From a virus (Duplodnaviria > Heunggongvirae > Uroviricota > Caudoviricetes), in the IMG/VR virus record IMGVR_UViG_2703718827_000002, positions 1 through 50,082 of that record: a stretch of DNA of 50,082 nt, one strand, 5' to 3'. Of this stretch, positions 2,608 through 50,082 are shown one piece after another. Position 1 is the first letter of the stretch. Each line of letters opens with the position of its first letter. The position numbers and the translations under genes were made by a program. Below the pieces are notes generated by a model, which was not told the DNA's origin, searched no databases, and saw only the letters and a list, made by a program, of their open reading frames with translations.

Positions 2608-3453
2608 ATGGCAAACGAATTAACAATCACAGCGACGTCGCTTCAGGAGATAGGCGTCGACGTCTCCACCTGGAGCGCGCTGAAGAACAGCATCTACCCT
2701 GGCGCCAAAGACGAATCGGTAATGATGGCGCTTGATTACTGCCGCGCCCGCCAGTTGGATCCGTTGCTCAAACCTGTCCACCTCGTTCCGATGTACGTCA
2801 AAGACTCGAAAACAGGTAAAGGTGACTGGCGCGACGTGGTCATGCCTGGCATCGGGCTTTACCGCATTCAGGCAGACCGTTCCGGCGATTATGCCGGGGC
2901 TCGCGAGCCTGAGTTCGGGCCAGACACGACGCAGACACTTTCTGGTGTCGAGGTGACCTTCCCTCAGTGGTGCAAATACACCGTCTACAAGCGCATGCCC
3001 AGCGGCGAGATCGTCGAGTTCAGCGCCAAAGAATACTGGATTGAAAACTATGCCACCGCCGGCCGCGACACCACGGCGCCGAATGCAATGTGGAAAAAGC
3101 GCCCATACGGCCAGCTGGCGAAATGCGCAGAAGCCCAGGCGTTGCGTAAGGCATGGCCTGAGATTGGACAGCAGCCTACCGCCGAAGAAATGGAAGGCAA
3201 ATCACTGGACGTTGATATCCGTGACGTCACGCCGCGCAACACCACTGAAGCACTTCCACCAGCAGCAAGCGAAGAAACGCTGCAGGCGATAACCGATCTC
3301 TTAACGACACTGGATAAAGACTGGGAGAAAGACTTCCTCCCTGTGTGCAGAGACATCTTCAAACGGCCAATTCTTGAGGCGTCAGACCTCACTGAAGAAG
3401 AGGCACAGAAAGGGTTCAACTTCCTTCAGAAAAAAGCTAAGGCGGCAGCATGA
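2608..3453 (+). CDS. bet: RecT/Red-beta family single-strand annealing protein (Bet-like)
   Basis: C-terminal region closely matches lambda Bet (recalled); ATG at 2608 with GAGGGG RBS (track start 2593 is TTG); stop overlaps exo. Confidence 0.8.
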
Positions 3454-4130
3454 CACCCGAAATTATCCTGTCCCGGACTGGCATTGACGTAACCACGATC
3501 CAACAGGGCGACGAGGCATGGCACCGGCTGCGTCTCGGCGTCATTACTGCCTCTGAAGTGCATAACGTCATTTCCAAGCCGCGCTCCGGCACCAAATGGA
3601 CGGGCATGAAGATGTCCTACTTCCACACCCTACTCGCCGAGGTATGCACCGGCGTAGCACCAGAGGTTAATGCCAAGGCGTTGGCCTGGGGCAAGCAGTA
3701 CGAGGAAGACGCCCGCACCCTCTTCGAGTTCACCACTGACGTGAAAGTCACGGAGTCTCCGATCCTGTTCCGTGACGAGAGCATGCGCACCGCGTGCTCC
3801 CCTGACGGCCTTTGCAGTAACAATTTCGGCCTTGAGCTGAAATGCCCGTTCACCTCCCGCGACTTTATGAAATTCCGCCTCGGCGGTTTCGAAGCCATTA
3901 AGTCCGAGTACATGGCCCAGGTGCAGTACAGCATGTGGGTGACCGGAAAAGACGCCTGGTTCTTTGCCAACTACGACCCGCGCATGAAGCGCGAAGGTAT
4001 TCACCACGTCGTCGTTGAGCGGGACCCGCAGTACATGACCGATTTCAACGAAATGGTGCCGGAGTTCATTGAGAAGATGGACGAGGCGCTGGCAGAGATC
4101 GGCTTCACGTTCGGGGAACAGTGGAAATGA
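3450..4130 (+). CDS. exo: Lambda-type 5'-3' exonuclease (Red-alpha / YqaJ family)
   Basis: Sequence is near-collinear with recalled lambda Exo (MTPDIILQRTGIDV..., [24 protein letters not shown]). Confidence 0.9.
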
Positions 4131-4555
4131 AACGCACACCCTTTTACCGCCGGCCAGGGCGAACCGGGAAATTCTCCGGCCTCCGTGAGCGTGTTATCTG
4201 GATGATTCAGACGCGCGGCCGCCCGGTAACCGGCAGCGAAATCGCCGAGAAGTTTGGCGTAACGCTCATCGAGTTTAACCGGGTCGCCAACGGCATTACC
4301 CGCGGCACCGGGCAGATAGCGCAGGTCGTTGAGTCGAAAAAGTGGATCAACGAGGACGGCATTTGCGACCGGACATTCGACCTCGTCACGAAGCCTAAGG
4401 TCGTAACACCACAGGGCAAATCACGGCTATTCACCCGGCGCGCCATTGAGCAATCGCAGGAAGGCCGACGGCAGGAGTGCATTGAACGTGCCGCCCGCCG
4501 TAGTCGCCTGATTGCTCAGGGCCTCTACATCGACGAAATGGAGTCAGTGCTATGA
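4127..4555 (+). CDS. Hypothetical phage protein (142 aa)
   Basis: ATG at 4127 overlaps exo stop (ATGA); track ORF 4121..4555 starts at GTG. Confidence 0.5.
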
Positions 4556-4719
4556 AAGCGTGGTCTCTCGAAGAGCTGGCGCTGCTGTGGCGACACACAA
4601 ACGCTGAAGTCGCCGAGATTACTGTCCGCTGCATTGAAGAGGTAGGAGATAAGCGGCTGCAAACCAATATTGAGCGTAATGGCTGGGATGTAAACGATCC
4701 GGAGCGGGAGGCTGCATGA
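4552..4719 (+). CDS. Small hypothetical protein (55 aa)
   Basis: ATGA overlap with upstream stop; uninterrupted ORF; below track cutoff. Confidence 0.35.
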   Translation: MKAWSLEELALLWRHTNAEVAEITVRCIEEVGDKRLQTNIERNGWDVNDPEREAA

Positions 4720-6965: not shown

Positions 6966-7181
6966 ATGAATGACAGTATCCTGCTTACCAGTGACGTACT
7001 GGCTCGCTATAAGATTTCCCGGAGCACTCTGTATTTCTGGAGCACCCCGGAGCGAATGCCTGCTGGCTTCACCTGCCCTTTCCCCAAACCAACAATCCCC
7101 GGCAACCCAAAACGCTGGAGAGAGTCGGAGATCGTTTCGTGGGAAATGCAGGTCAACGCCTCTAAAGCTGATACCCAATAA
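6966..7181 (+). CDS. AlpA-family excisionase / phage regulatory protein
   Basis: 71 aa; LARYKISRSTLYFW helix-turn-helix typical of AlpA/Xis-like proteins; convergent with and overlapping the 3' end of the integrase. Confidence 0.6.
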   Translation: MNDSILLTSDVLARYKISRSTLYFWSTPERMPAGFTCPFPKPTIPGNPKRWRESEIVSWEMQVNASKADTQ

Positions 7182-8343
7182 TGCTCTGCAGGTGATTCTG
7201 CCAAATACCCAACCACTCGCGCTGGTCATCCATATAGTCGTGCAGGTTGTATCTGGCCATCACCCCACCCATCTGATGACCAAGCAGCTTTTCAATAACA
7301 TGCGGTGGCGCGCCAAGTTCTGACAACCTGGTTGCAACGGTGCGCCTCAGGTCATGCAGAGACCACTGTTTCATGTCTGTCTTTCTGATCACCTGCATGG
7401 AATAGGTCGAGACTAGGGCCTGAGTAGGTGGAATGTCTTCTTTATCTCGGAACTGAGCCGGTGTTAAAACGTGCTTAGTGACCGAACCTCTTTTATGCTC
7501 CTGAAGCAGCCTGATCGCCACTTCAGGCAATGCCCTCCTGATCGTCTTCCCTGTTTTGTAATCCTCAGCCGGTACCGTCCAGGTCTTTTCATTAAAGTTG
7601 TACCAGTCCCAGCGCGATTTCCTTATTTCTGCAGCCCTGCACCCAGTCAGGAGCATGAACCGTATAACAAGTTGCTGTGATGGAGGGAGCGCGAAAAGTG
7701 TATCCCAAACCACTTTGATCTCTTCGTCGGAGAGTCGCCTCTCCTTCATCTTCGCTGCAATACCAACGTCTGATCTGCGCAAGGATTCAAGCGGGTTGTT
7801 TTTAATTACCCCTCGGTTATGGCAGAACCGGAACGCGCGCTTCATTAATGACAGCATCTCACCAGTAATAACCGAACGCCCCATCTCGTCGAACACATCA
7901 AGCCAGTTAGCCTTGAACGTCTGATCAACCATCGCCCTGCCAATGCGCGGGCTAATGTGCTTCTGAAAGCTCCTGGTATTGGCATCGATTTTGATCAGAC
8001 CCTCGGGAATGCAGTAATGCTTTACCCAGTACTCATACGCCTGGTCAACCGTTAGCGCCTCTATCCTTTCTGCTTTCTCAACCAGAACCTTCTGGCGTGG
8101 ATCGTAACCCTCACTCAGCCAGGCGCGAAACTGCTGCCTGCGGTCTCTTGCCTGCGCTAATGAATAGGCTGGGTATTCACCTATACTGAGTTGCACCGGC
8201 TTACCCTGCCAGCGATAACGGTAGAAGAAAGTTACGCCACCAGTTATGCTTAACCTGACATTAAGCCCGTTTGAATCTGAGAGAACTTCCACACTCTCTC
8301 TGCGCTTACCAAGCGCCTTACGAAGTTTTGTATCTGTGAGCAT
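7162..8343 (-). CDS. int: Tyrosine integrase (P4-type)
   Basis: C-terminal catalytic region with HDLRRT...LLGH...Y; N-terminal MLTDTKLRKA typical of P4-like integrases; ATG at 8343 with AGGGG RBS (track start 8352 is GTG). Confidence 0.85.
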   Translation of the reverse strand: MLTDTKLRKALGKRRESVEVLSDSNGLNVRLSITGGVTFFYRYRWQGKPVQLSIGEYPAYSLAQARDRRQQFRAWLSEGYDPRQKVLVEKAERIEALTVDQAYEYWVKHYCIPEGLIKIDANTRSFQKHISPRIGRAMVDQTFKANWLDVFDEMGRSVITGEMLSLMKRAFRFCHNRGVIKNNPLESLRRSDVGIAAKMKERRLSDEEIKVVWDTLFALPPSQQLVIRFMLLTGCRAAEIRKSRWDWYNFNEKTWTVPAEDYKTGKTIRRALPEVAIRLLQEHKRGSVTKHVLTPAQFRDKEDIPPTQALVSTYSMQVIRKTDMKQWSLHDLRRTVATRLSELGAPPHVIEKLLGHQMGGVMARYNLHDYMDDQREWLGIWQNHLQSIIGYQL

Positions 8344-44390: not shown

Positions 44391-45034
44391 TGGGCGGTCC
44401 TCCAACCTTCACATTCAATGTCACTGCAGCCATCGAAATCGTATGGATTTAGCTGCCAGCTAATCTTTCCGCAGCAAGGGCAATTCCAGCGAACCTTACC
44501 GCTGCGTGATTTTTTTCGGTTGTGCTTTTTCAGCCACTCAGGCATGACAAGCCCTGCCGCCTGAACCATGGTGCGTCGGTTAAACTCATTGATGCTGAAC
44601 GTGCGGCGCTTAGCCTTGTCAGCTAAAGCAAAAGGAATCCAGACAATGCCAGGCTCTGCCGTGTTGGCGGATACAAAAACGAATGCCTTACTGAAGTCGT
44701 CAGTTGGAAGGCCTCCATGTTGCAACCAGTACACATCGTTACCGTTCCAACTGCCTTTTTTGTAGGCCACATAGGACTCACAGCCAGGCTCAATAACACT
44801 TTCGGTAGGTATGTACTGACAATCGACATGCCAGACAGCCATGGAATCAACACTGTCAGCGCAAACCGGCTGATCAATCTCTCTACCCAATTCCCAGCTT
44901 CTTTGAGCTTCTTCACGGGTGTACACGTGGGCGCGGTCTATATTGGAGCTATATCCGTTGCCGTTGTGGCAGTGGGATGACGCGTTACTGCCAACCGTTT
45001 CGCGAGTACAAAGCATGTAAAATCTATCGCTCAT
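44387..45034 (-). CDS. Hypothetical protein with C-terminal zinc ribbon (215 aa)
   Basis: WNCPCCGKISW...CSDIECEGW near C-terminus; coupled starts. Confidence 0.5.
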   Translation of the reverse strand: MSDRFYMLCTRETVGSNASSHCHNGNGYSSNIDRAHVYTREEAQRSWELGREIDQPVCADSVDSMAVWHVDCQYIPTESVIEPGCESYVAYKKGSWNGNDVYWLQHGGLPTDDFSKAFVFVSANTAEPGIVWIPFALADKAKRRTFSINEFNRRTMVQAAGLVMPEWLKKHNRKKSRSGKVRWNCPCCGKISWQLNPYDFDGCSDIECEGWRTAQ

Positions 45035-47197: not shown

Positions 47198-48083
47198 GAT
47201 CCCCCTCGCGCACTTCGATGTAGAGCTTTTCGGTCAGGAACTTATCGAATTTCATGCGGCGCCAGGTTTTCCCGGATTTCTGGTCTGGTCGGTCTTCAAG
47301 CATCCAGCGGCAGTTTTGAGCGATATATCGCAGATAGCTTCTGAAACCGTCCATATCCATCGGCTTGCCGTCCAGGTTGCGGGCAATCTTGTTAGCCTTA
47401 CCCCAGAAGGTGCGGATCAGATTGCGTCGCTCATCAGTGAGGCATCTCCATCCCCGGGCTTCAGGCAGTTCGTCTTTCAGGCATTGCCATACTTCATCGC
47501 ATGACAAACGGGACTTTTTCTCTTCAGCGGGGTTCTGGTCATTTGCGACATACTTACTACCTTTAGGTAGTAAGTTATTTAATATATTGTTATCTGTGGA
47601 CACCGGCTGGACATCGGCTGGACACACATCCTCCACAGGCATTGTTATTACTGCGTTTGCGCTGGACACTGGCTGGACATCGGCTGGACAAAAATTTGAC
47701 TGATATTCGTCATATTTGACCACTTTTAGAACAGTAAAACGGTTGTTCGATTTGGTGGTGATCATGCCCAGATTCTGGAATTTACGGAGCAGTGATTTAA
47801 CGCGATCAGCGGTCAAACCCGTTTCCATTGCCAGCGTGTTACGCCCGGTGATGAACTCGCCGCGCTCGCAGATCACATCGCCAACATCAGTCGATACCAG
47901 TGTCTGTTCGTGATTAGCGCGCAGGAGCAGGTGAACCCATAAATGAGCCGCCTCAGCGTCCTTGTAGAACGGCACATCCATAATTTTACGGTGCAGCAAG
48001 GCAAACCCCTTACCGTCATTCGTGCGCGGTTTCTGGAGCCTTCTGGCCTCTCTGGCTTCGGCTAAATTGGATACGTTACCCAC
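47184..48083 (-). CDS. Replication initiator (lambda O-like) with internal origin iterons
   Basis: N-terminal helix-turn-helix region, repeated CPADVQPVS peptide encoded by the iterons; GTG start with AAGGAG RBS. Confidence 0.7.
   Translation of the reverse strand: MGNVSNLAEAREARRLQKPRTNDGKGFALLHRKIMDVPFYKDAEAAHLWVHLLLRANHEQTLVSTDVGDVICERGEFITGRNTLAMETGLTADRVKSLLRKFQNLGMITTKSNNRFTVLKVVKYDEYQSNFCPADVQPVSSANAVITMPVEDVCPADVQPVSTDNNILNNLLPKGSKYVANDQNPAEEKKSRLSCDEVWQCLKDELPEARGWRCLTDERRNLIRTFWGKANKIARNLDGKPMDMDGFRSYLRYIAQNCRWMLEDRPDQKSGKTWRRMKFDKFLTEKLYIEVREGDRDDR
47551..47689. repeat. Origin of replication: TGGACA iterons at 11-bp phasing plus palindrome and AT-rich segment
   Basis: Six TGGACA cores in two clusters (47597-47623 and 47662-47689), perfect palindrome ACTTACTACC-TTT-GGTAGTAAGT at 47551-47574, AT-rich stretch 47575-47593. 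Confidence 0.7.
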
Positions 48084-48315
48084 GGCCACTCTCCTTACGT
48101 TTCAATTCTTCCAGGATGGCGCGCATCTTCTCTGCCACAATCGGGTTAACCGAGCGGATGAAGCGGTCGCGGGCTATGTTTTTATGTACAGCGGTATGGT
48201 AATAGCGTGGATTTTTTGCCATTATTCCTCCTGCAATGAGTGCACACGATTTGCATCTGAAGGCCAGTTCTGTTCGCGCAGACTGGCTTTCGCCATTTTT
48301 GATACTTCCCATCAC
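48076..48315 (-). CDS. Hypothetical protein (79 aa)
   Basis: ORF between the YdaT-like gene and the O-like gene. Confidence 0.45.
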   Translation of the reverse strand: MMGSIKNGESQSARTELAFRCKSCALIAGGIMAKNPRYYHTAVHKNIARDRFIRSVNPIVAEKMRAILEELKRKESGRG

Positions 48316-48854
48316 ATAACCCCCAGCATCGACGTGACCATCGTCATCAGTGGGCCTACCTGCTCCGGCATGAGGCGGAACAGCGAAGCTATACCCTCGC
48401 TTACCTCTTTCAGCTTCTGATGCTCTGGGGCGTCCAAAAGCACGGCCTGTTTAGCTTCAGCACACTCTTTCATCGCAGAAGCGATCAGCGACATCGTGTC
48501 GTTCTGCGGCGCCAGGCGGTTGCGGTACTCCAGCGGCAATACGGACATGATTGCGGGTGTCAGCTGGCGCACGTTCTCGCGGTACTGTTCGGAGTCGAAA
48601 CGGTTATCCAGGAAGCGGAACAGCTTCTGGCGCGCACGGCTGATGTCGTCAGGAAAGCTGATGGCGGTCCCGCCCTGCTCCCGGTATTCGTTGATGATCA
48701 GTGCCGAAACGACGTCCTGATTGTCCAGCGCCGAAGACCATGCCCGGACCGCATCGCGGATCTTTTCGTGGTCAGGCGCCGCCTTAGGTTGAGCGCGGTT
48801 TATCATCGCTCCCGGGTGTATTCCGGTATTGTGTTGATACGCAAGTGAATGCAT
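48312..48854 (-). CDS. YdaT-family protein (CII-position regulator)
   Basis: INEYREQGG and LTPAIMSVLPLEYRNRL resemble the recalled Rac YdaT; position downstream of the cro-like gene. Confidence 0.55.
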   Translation of the reverse strand: MHSLAYQHNTGIHPGAMINRAQPKAAPDHEKIRDAVRAWSSALDNQDVVSALIINEYREQGGTAISFPDDISRARQKLFRFLDNRFDSEQYRENVRQLTPAIMSVLPLEYRNRLAPQNDTMSLIASAMKECAEAKQAVLLDAPEHQKLKEVSEGIASLFRLMPEQVGPLMTMVTSMLGVM

Positions 48855-48871: not shown

Positions 48872-49105
48872 TTAGGCCGCAGTATCACGCGGCGATGCGA
48901 ATACCAGGCTTTCTTTTAGGACCGGAGCCTGGCGGTGAAAATTCTTCGTGCCTTTCTCGATAGCAGATGCCATTTCTGGAGATGCCCGGCGATTTCCGTA
49001 GGCGATCTGGTCCAGGTAACCTGGCGTCGTGTTAGCCAACTTTGCGAGCTGCGCCCATTCGTCGGTAGTGGCGGCCTTGCGCCAGCGGTGTAGTTCAGTG
49101 CTCAT
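48872..49105 (-). CDS. Cro-like helix-turn-helix regulator (YdaS family)
   Basis: 77 aa, divergent from cI across the operator region. Confidence 0.65.
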   Translation of the reverse strand: MSTELHRWRKAATTDEWAQLAKLANTTPGYLDQIAYGNRRASPEMASAIEKGTKNFHRQAPVLKESLVFASPRDTAA

Positions 49106-49137
49106 TGGTGTCTCCGGGTGAGTCGTTTGATTTGGAG

Positions 49138-49204
49138 TTTAGCGTTATGCTAAATACTACGCAAGCATCATTTAGCAATTTGCACATTTATCATTTTGCT
49201 AAAA
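49138..49204. promoter_or_regulatory. OR-like operator region in the cI/cro divergent promoter
   Basis: Perfect 17-bp palindrome TTTAGCGTTATGCTAAA (49138-49154) plus two related imperfect sites (49171-49187, 49188-49204). Confidence 0.65.
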
Positions 49205-49221
49205 GCAGTAACAATGCAGGT

Positions 49222-49899
49222 ATGGAAAATAAAGAAATCAGAAAAGCCAACCTGGAAGCGCTGTACGAGAAGCGTCAGCACGAGTCTGGAATGACCAAAG
49301 CGCAGTTTGCCGAGCTCATCGAGACAAGTCCGGCTGCGCTTAGCCAGCTACTGGGACCAAACCCTCATCGCAATATCGGCGATAAGATGGCTCGCAAAAT
49401 TGAAACTGCGCTTGATCTGCCTTTTGGCTGGATGGATGTTTTACACGCCAGTGAAGAACCTTCGAACGTTGCATTTCGAGGACTGAACGAGACAAAAGGA
49501 AGTTATCCTGTAATCAGCTGGGTAAGCGCGGGGCAATGGATGGAAGCTGTAGAACCTTATCACCGAAGAGCGATAGATCGCTGGTATGACACGACTGTTG
49601 ACTGCTCAGAAGATTCATTCTGGCTGGACGTTAAAGGGGATTCTATGACCTCCCCGGCTGGACTGAGCATACCCGAGGGAGCAGCGATACTTGTTGATCC
49701 TGAAGTCGAGCCGCGCAACGGAAAGCTGGTTGTCGCGAAGCTAGAAGGCGATAACGAAGCGACCTTTAAGAAGCTTGTAATCGATGCCGGCAGACGCTTC
49801 CTAAAGCCCCTTAACCCCGCATATCCAATGCTAGAAATTAATGGAAACTGCAAAATCATCGGCGTTGTGGTTGATGCCAAAATACTAAACATCCCATAA
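49222..49899 (+). CDS. CI-type repressor with LexA-like S24 peptidase domain
   Basis: N-terminal HTH, C-terminal GDSM...KLV autocleavage signature; ATG at 49222 downstream of the operators (track start 49105). Confidence 0.85.
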   Translation: MENKEIRKANLEALYEKRQHESGMTKAQFAELIETSPAALSQLLGPNPHRNIGDKMARKIETALDLPFGWMDVLHASEEPSNVAFRGLNETKGSYPVISWVSAGQWMEAVEPYHRRAIDRWYDTTVDCSEDSFWLDVKGDSMTSPAGLSIPEGAAILVDPEVEPRNGKLVVAKLEGDNEATFKKLVIDAGRRFLKPLNPAYPMLEINGNCKIIGVVVDAKILNIP

Positions 49900-49919
49900 C
49901 CTCACGCAAAACCCCTCAA

Positions 49920-49946
49920 GCCCGCCATCGCGCGGGCTTTTTTACG
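49920..49946 (+). terminator. Rho-independent terminator after cI
   Basis: GCCCGC-catc-GCGGGC followed by TTTTTT. Confidence 0.7.
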
Positions 49947-49991
49947 TCCCGAATTCCTTCGCTGTAAATTTTTAATCGCTTATTAATCAAT

Positions 49992-50057
49992 ACGCTAAAT
50001 AAAACCATTCAACAATTTAGCATTTTGCTATTGCGCATAATTTAGCATCACGCTAAA
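49992..50057. promoter_or_regulatory. OL-like operator region
   Basis: Perfect palindrome TTTAGCATCACGCTAAA (50041-50057), related site at 50016-50032, half-site ACGCTAAA at 49992-49999. Confidence 0.6.
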
Positions 50058-50082
50058 TTCACCCCATCGAAACGAAACATCG

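Follow-up and report, generated by a model that had tools for sequence, protein, structure and literature searches.

At positions 49138-50057 of the window (the whole stretch of 50,082 nucleotides that was analysed) lies what is very probably the immunity switch of an E. coli prophage of the lambdoid kind, in which a cI-like repressor would act on six operator sites. Judged from its sequence, the switch appears to have a lambdoid set of OR and OL operators that places it in the H-19B family but carries a half-site variant of its own. The sequence features expected of a lambdoid switch were present, namely a repressor gene with helix-turn-helix (HTH) and S24 autocleavage domains divergent from cro, OR sites between the two genes and a second cluster of sites. 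An earlier note on this DNA had read the region as an OR/OL arrangement, and the gene order, the overlap of sites with promoters, the conservation of the sites and their concerted change in related loci were all consistent with that reading.

Proposed operator sites and predicted promoters

A motif search of the window for TTTAGC-N5-GCTAAA recovered both perfect palindromes described in the earlier note, at 49138-49154 (OR1, TTTAGCGTTATGCTAAA) and at 50041-50057 (OL1, TTTAGCATCACGCTAAA). The 'two related sites' that it had placed between cro and cI correspond to OR2 at 49171-49187 (TTTAGCAATTTGCACAT, three mismatches), in which the left half is perfect and the right half degenerate, and OR3 at 49187-49203 (TTTATCATTTTGCTAAA, one mismatch). 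The second cluster downstream of cI was found to comprise, besides the perfect palindrome, OL3 at 49983-49999 (TTAATCAATACGCTAAA, two mismatches) and OL2 at 50016-50032 (TTTAGCATTTTGCTATT, two mismatches). The six sites are confined, as two clusters, to the cro-cI gap (OR) and to the stretch past the cI terminator (OL). OR2 and OR3 have one base in common, and the distances between site centres were 33 and 16 bp in OR and 25 and 33 bp in OL.

Seven matches with two or fewer mismatches were observed in the window, compared with 1.84 expected, and none of 100 shuffles reached this number. Five of the seven fell within the two short non-coding stretches that contain OR and OL; the matches at 44448 (one mismatch) and 22765 (two mismatches) lie within coding sequence and within chance expectation, and were rejected as operators. 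Exact half-sites were similarly concentrated, with eight of the 26 in the window located in its last 983 bases (8.1 per kb, compared with 0.37 per kb elsewhere, a 22-fold difference).

A strict sigma-70 consensus scan of the region identified no promoter. Promoters were assigned from relaxed hexamer matches together with conservation, and PR, PL and PRM each match just 7-8 of the 12 consensus positions. Predicted PR (49136..49164, minus strand) comprises a -35 hexamer TTGCGT (49164-49159), a 17-bp spacer and a -10 hexamer TAAACT (49141-49136), and predicted PL (50031..50059, plus strand) comprises TTGCGC (50031-50036), a 17-bp spacer and TAAATT (50054-50059), with a predicted start near the A at 50066. 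The two cores are near-identical (TTGCGT-17-TAAACT versus TTGCGC-17-TAAATT), and in each of them a perfect palindrome, OR1 or OL1 respectively, fills the spacer and overlaps the -10 hexamer. OL2 overlaps the predicted PL -35 hexamer by 2 bp.

Predicted PRM (49187..49215, plus strand) is weak, and can be read either as TTATCA-16-AACAAT or as TTTATC-17-AACAAT, with the -10 hexamer at 49210-49215; its -35 hexamer is overlapped by OR3. The predicted cI transcript starts at about the A of the ATG at 49222, and the centre of OR2 lies approximately 43 bp upstream of this start. No usable Shine-Dalgarno sequence was present upstream of the cI ATG, and the cI mRNA is probably leaderless, like the cI mRNA of lambda. 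A leaderless repressor mRNA is also known for paaR2 of CP-933P (PMC8630535). Downstream of cI, an intrinsic terminator (49918..49945, plus strand) consists of an 8-bp G+C-rich stem followed by a T run; the hit returned by the terminator scan spanned 49918-49939 (7069-7090 in the E. coli MLI104K1 record) and is kept in the Klebsiella phage KO-TP1.

We propose that cI dimers bind the 17-bp operators with consensus TTTAGC-N5-GCTAAA. Repressor on OR1 and OL1 would shut both PR, which is directed leftward to cro, the CII-like gene and the replication genes, and PL, which is directed rightward to kil-gam-bet-exo. In lambda, where OR2 lies at about -42, cI activates PRM from that site, and OR2 of the window, with its one perfect half-site, would by its position act on PRM in the same way. 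In OR3 a T that weakens the site is conserved; the site also lies over the PRM -35 hexamer, a position from which repressor at high levels would stop cI synthesis. Cro would act on the same OR region, locking in lytic growth. We infer that the repressor binds the six sites, and the same holds for any order of site affinities and for cooperativity or OR-OL looping over the ~900 bp between the clusters. Against this reading, OR2 is a weak match that shares a base with OR3, and the spacings are unlike the 23-24 bp of lambda. Because of the shared base, and because the spacings differ between OR and OL, pairwise cooperativity of the lambda type should not be taken for granted. It is possible but doubtful that the conserved base shared by OR2 and OR3 makes activation and repression of PRM mutually exclusive.

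The repressor gene, the PR operon and their genomic context

The genes flanking OR were divergent, as the earlier note had claimed, with a cro-like gene on the minus strand and a repressor gene with HTH and Peptidase_S24 domains on the plus strand. The repressor gene, cI (49222..49899, plus strand), encodes 225 aa with a lambda-cI-like HTH N-terminal domain and an S24 autocleavage C-terminal domain of the P22 c2/lambda type. Pfam searches assigned Peptidase_S24 (E 2e-29) and HTH_3 to the product, which could be aligned with lambda cI (PDB 3bdn) over residues 10-218 (E 5e-32). The cleavage motifs comprised A103-G104, GDSM at 139 and KK at 183 (the lysine of FKKL), and these residues align to A111-G112, S149 and K192 of lambda. 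The presence of an Ala-Gly site and a Ser/Lys dyad predicts RecA-stimulated self-cleavage, and hence an SOS-inducible prophage. At the DNA level the C-terminal domain, which serves for oligomerization and autocleavage, was ~77 % identical to P22 c2, whereas no DNA match to P22 was found for the N-terminal DNA-binding domain. The repressor gene itself is thus a mosaic joined at the linker, with a C-terminal domain of the P22 c2/lambda type and not of the H-19B type.

In the RefSeq/PGAP annotation the repressor is 250 aa long and starts from an ATG at 49147, inside OR1 (6298 in the E. coli MLI104K1 record). The start MENKEIRK (49222) is conserved down to 50 % identity, and an in-frame stop codon lies within 25 codons upstream of it in 28 of 76 distinct relatives, including H-19B. 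For these two reasons 49222 was taken as the true cI start and the RefSeq start at 49147 as wrong. In the record of Klebsiella phage Chronis the repressor start has been annotated even further upstream.

The cro-like gene (48872..49105, minus strand), the first gene of the PR operon, encodes 77 aa and is preceded by a GGAG Shine-Dalgarno sequence. Its product was 61 % identical to the annotated Cro of H-19B (E 5e-33), matched HTH_3 weakly in Pfam and was assigned to PHROG 35 (transcriptional repressor); matches to PDB structures were insignificant. The second gene (48312..48854, minus strand) encodes a CII-like regulator of the YdaT family, with matches to Pfam YdaT_toxin (PF06254; E 5e-28) and to PHROG 163, 'CII-like transcriptional activator' (E 1e-60), and is only distantly related to YdaT of CP-933P (PDB 8bt1; E 2.8e-4). 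Further leftward lie genes for an O-like protein and a DnaB-type helicase. In other loci the gene following cro belongs to different families. A 79-aa ORF (48076-48315, minus strand) between the YdaT-like and O-like genes matched PHROG 1913, 'tail protein' (E 7e-25), a label that is implausible at that position, and also weakly matched DUF2740.

The published YdaT site is TTGATT-N6-AATCAA (PMC9986795). A search for this motif in OR, in OL and near the cro-ydaT junction found no occurrence, and the short inverted repeats present near that junction were not conserved among loci. Elsewhere in the window, a perfect TTGATTCAACAAAATCAA at 42579-42596 matches the CP-933P YdaT operator consensus TTGATT-N6-AATCAA. 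It sits in a gap of ~210 bp upstream of ninB, just past a terminator-like hairpin, and by our estimate ~0.003 perfect matches would be expected by chance in a sequence the size of the window.

The immunity region was 100 % identical to that of a prophage in E. coli MLI104K1 and was present in 27 of 5426 complete E. coli genomes (~0.5 %). In one record, NZ_LR134247.1 (E. coli NCTC9040), two places matched the immunity region, which may represent two prophages of the same immunity on one chromosome. The MLI104K1 prophage continues rightward from OL with a leader of ~230 nt followed by a TerB-family gene, kil, gam, bet and exo, which form an early-left operon. No recognizable gene for an N-like antiterminator was found in the PL leader region of this prophage, in which the TerB-family gene comes first, at the place where H-19B has N. 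Within the leader (7209-7435 in the MLI104K1 record) lies an ORF of 25 codons that has a strong AGGAGG, and conservation in the closest relatives, KO-TP1 and two Enterobacter loci, covers the first ~48 nt of the leader. A 'hypothetical protein' annotated on the minus strand over the leader (7199-7402 in the same record) is probably spurious and is not conserved in KO-TP1. An Rfam scan of the immunity region and the PL leader returned only sub-threshold chance matches.

Compared with the MLI104K1 prophage, the window was 100 % identical from 48832 to its end, whereas identity fell to ~91 % within the YdaT-like gene and no match was found for the O-like gene or for DnaB, in place of which that prophage has a lambda-type P. 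The immunity module is therefore a mosaic cassette, with a boundary at 48832 and leftward.

Conservation and concerted change of the half-sites

Nine genomes whose repressor N-terminal domains were 50-100 % identical were compared, and scans of viral and metagenome contigs extended the set to 173 loci. In all nine genomes OR3 was located at -35 from the cI ATG and OR1 at -84, or at -83 in two Pantoea loci, and the OL sites were also in register. Across the 173 loci all six sites kept a fixed register with respect to the cI start and the conserved promoter hexamers. KO-TP1, which is 91 % identical, retains all of the sites although its OL spacers have diverged. The promoter hexamers showed in-register conservation in all lineages, both for PR (-35 TTGC.. 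and the -10 hexamer) and for PL (TTGnnn and TAAAnT, H-19B included), and a hexamer xAxxAT at -12..-7 from the cI ATG was seen in every lineage shown.

Sites that were not conserved in phages with the same repressor would have spoken against operators; instead, the half-sites were kept, with entropies close to zero. In 69 distinct OR sequences of the type with G at position 5 of the half-site (G-type), the entropies were 0.0/0.0 for the halves of OR1, 0.0 for the left half of OR2 and 0.05/0.04 for the halves of OR3. The central five bases of the sites had values of 0.25-0.80, the maximum being that of the OR3 centre (0.80), and the spacers and leaders 0.7-1.4. In 90 distinct G-type OL sequences the halves of OL1 gave 0.0/0.0 and its centre 0.61, and the halves of OL2 gave 0.03/0.0. 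For OL3 the right half GCTAAA had an entropy of 0.08 and the left half 0.24, compared with 1.2 in the flanking spacer; the OL spacers overall ranged from 1.0 to 1.2. Departures from the consensus were conserved as well, the right half of OR2 being kept as non-consensus G-N-R-Y-A-T and the left half of OR3 being non-G (TTTATC or TTTACC) in all G-type lineages.

Among 153 loci OL1 lay between 131 and 2228 bp past the cI stop codon, which indicates that OL goes with PL and is not tied to the end of cI. In 25 loci 0.8-2.2 kb separated cI from OL, at the place where lambda has rexAB. In a Biostraticola locus two ORFs, one of 158 aa and one of 310 aa, occupy this stretch (3229-4634).

Among characterized phages the closest resemblance was to H-19B, together with Stx1 phages, BP-4795 and mEp506. 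Its cI N-terminal domain is 51 % identical and starts with MENK(D/E)IRK, the sites lie at -84, -51 and -35 from the cI ATG, three OL sites occur in the same register, and PL has a -35 hexamer TTGCCA and a -10 hexamer TAAAGT. In H-19B, however, most half-sites read TTTATC or TTTACC and GATAAA, and a few read GCTAAA, whereas those of the window are TTTAGC/GCTAAA. The OR sites read TTTACC-N5-GATAAA, TTTATC-N5-GCGTAT and TTTATC-N5-GCTAAA, and OL1 reads TTTATC-N5-GATAAA. The two phages also differ in the C-terminal domain of the repressor, which in H-19B is of a different S24 type, and in gene content, as H-19B has cII and N whereas the phage of the window has a YdaT-type protein and no recognizable N. 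The N-terminal domain of cI, Cro and the geometry of the sites place the module in the H-19B family, and its operator sequence is not that of H-19B itself. Four OR operators have been reported for H-19B in a review (PMC8065619), which cites Shi and Friedman (2001). A candidate for the fourth, TTTATCACACAGAACAA, was read by eye at -102, and its equation with the reported operator is our own suggestion. The counterpart position in the window reads GAGTCGTTTGATTTGGA, this stretch is unconserved (entropy 1.37), and the candidate has no counterpart in the window.

In the Pantoea clade, in which the N-terminal domain is ~50 % identical, the operators had changed together, while all sites kept their positions to within one base. 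Every half-site of the G/C type reads TTTATC/GATAAA in place of TTTAGC/GCTAAA, including both halves of OR1 (TTTATC-N5-GATAAA) and OL1, the left half of OR2 (TTTATC) and the right half of OL3 (GATAAA). OL2, likewise changed in both halves, reads TTTATC-N5-GATATT. Even the degenerate right half of OR2 had changed from GC to GA, and OR3 is fully perfect in this T-type clade. Where the repressor has diverged the sites have changed in concert, and this marks them as sites that a single protein of altered specificity reads.

At position 5 of the half-site the window group has G and the Pantoea group T, while H-19B and locus L144 are mixed. The possibility that residue 39 in helix 3 of the repressor (Ala/Met/Thr versus Gln) sets the choice between G and T was rejected, as TTTAGC operators also occur in two lineages that have Gln39 (the L136 and L143 groups). 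No single residue of the recognition helix explains the switch. Pure G-type and pure T-type repressors were separated only by S36N, L32Q and the loop at 47-49, and these are no more than candidates, with one T clade available for comparison. The recognition helix of Cro (GYLDQ) was unchanged across G-, T- and mixed-type loci, and Cro may read the sites differently from cI. It is a distinctly doubtful extension of this observation that Cro may ignore the base at position 5 and act across phages of the family that are otherwise heteroimmune; if so, a resident prophage of another immunity could have its PRM shut off by Cro.

The best-surviving alternative, which we consider unlikely while taking it seriously, is that OR consists of two units, OR1 and a 33-bp composite (49171-49203) with outer halves TTTAGC and GCTAAA 21 bp apart, which would be bound by a tetramer or occupied in mutually exclusive ways. 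The one-base overlap of OR2 and OR3 would be accounted for, as would the two inner halves, which are non-consensus and conserved as such in every lineage, and the OL spacing, which is unlike that of OR. OR3 taken alone, however, is a near-perfect site that becomes fully perfect in the T-type clade, and H-19B, with the same geometry, is reported to have discrete OR operator sites (PMC8065619, citing Shi and Friedman 2001).

Much less probable is the view that, instead of the cI-like repressor, the operators serve mainly Cro or some other factor, for instance a protein of the host or the CII-like YdaT protein. Lambdoid Cro proteins normally use the operators of cI, and in CP-933P the repressor and the Cro analogue YdaS both protect overlapping repeats with the half-site GTTTAGTAA, which has TTTAG in common with the sites described here (PMC8630535). 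The switch at position 5, however, follows the lineage of the cI N-terminal domain while the Cro helix stays constant; a factor supplied by the host would not vary in step with the phage lineage; and the published YdaT site differs and is absent from OR and OL. That the repeats are conserved merely as parts of promoters (-10 TAAAnT and A/T-rich spacers) without any repressor binding is hardly credible, for although the outer TAAA of OR1 and OL1 lies within the predicted -10 hexamers and the left half of OR3 coincides with the predicted PRM -35, half-sites in spacers or outside hexamers (the inner halves of OR1 and OL1, OL3 and the left half of OR2) are equally invariant, and promoter constraints do not predict the joint change at the same position in Pantoea.

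Relation to other switches and immunity specificity

With operators for the cI-like repressor as the preferred reading, the switch resembles that of lambda in having 17-bp, partly symmetric operators, three per cluster, with O1 over each lytic promoter, in a repressor that could be aligned over residues 10-218, cleavage site and catalytic residues included, and in one site ~43 bp upstream of the predicted start of a cI mRNA that is probably leaderless. It differs from lambda in that the operator sequence is unrelated, the spacing is 33/16 bp (OR) and 25/33 bp (OL) instead of 23-24 bp, OR2 lies clear of the PR -35 hexamer, and OR and OL are ~0.9 kb apart as opposed to 2.4 kb. In addition, rexAB is absent from the window, and other members of the family carry inserts at that position.

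The likeness to P22 c2 is limited to the C-terminal domain of the repressor. With CP-933P and Rac (PaaR2 or RacR, YdaS, YdaT) the window shares a YdaT-family CII analogue as the second PR gene. CP-933P has been reported to have the half-site consensus GTTTAGTAA, a leaderless repressor mRNA and analogues of OL and PL (PMC8630535). The repressor of the window is, however, an S24-type cI and not PaaR2 or RacR, its Cro had no YdaS-family match in Pfam, its YdaT homologue is distant, and the toxin-antitoxin pair is absent.

The earlier note had also held that the sites define the immunity specificity of the prophage. This is plausible, but the half-site alone may not delimit an immunity group, because repressors that are 57-64 % identical in the N-terminal domain share TTTAGC. 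No paper containing the operator strings of the window was found in the searchable literature.

Conceptually the switch adds nothing beyond the lambda paradigm and represents ordinary on/off switch biology. What the analysis provides is a confident map of operators and promoters for an uncharacterized immunity type, one that occurs in prophages of E. coli, Klebsiella, Enterobacter, Citrobacter and related bacteria, and the assignment of this module to the family of H-19B, which lends itself to experiment. The natural series of operators with G, T or a mixture of both at one position, set in a fixed architecture, should be useful for studying how immunity diverges.
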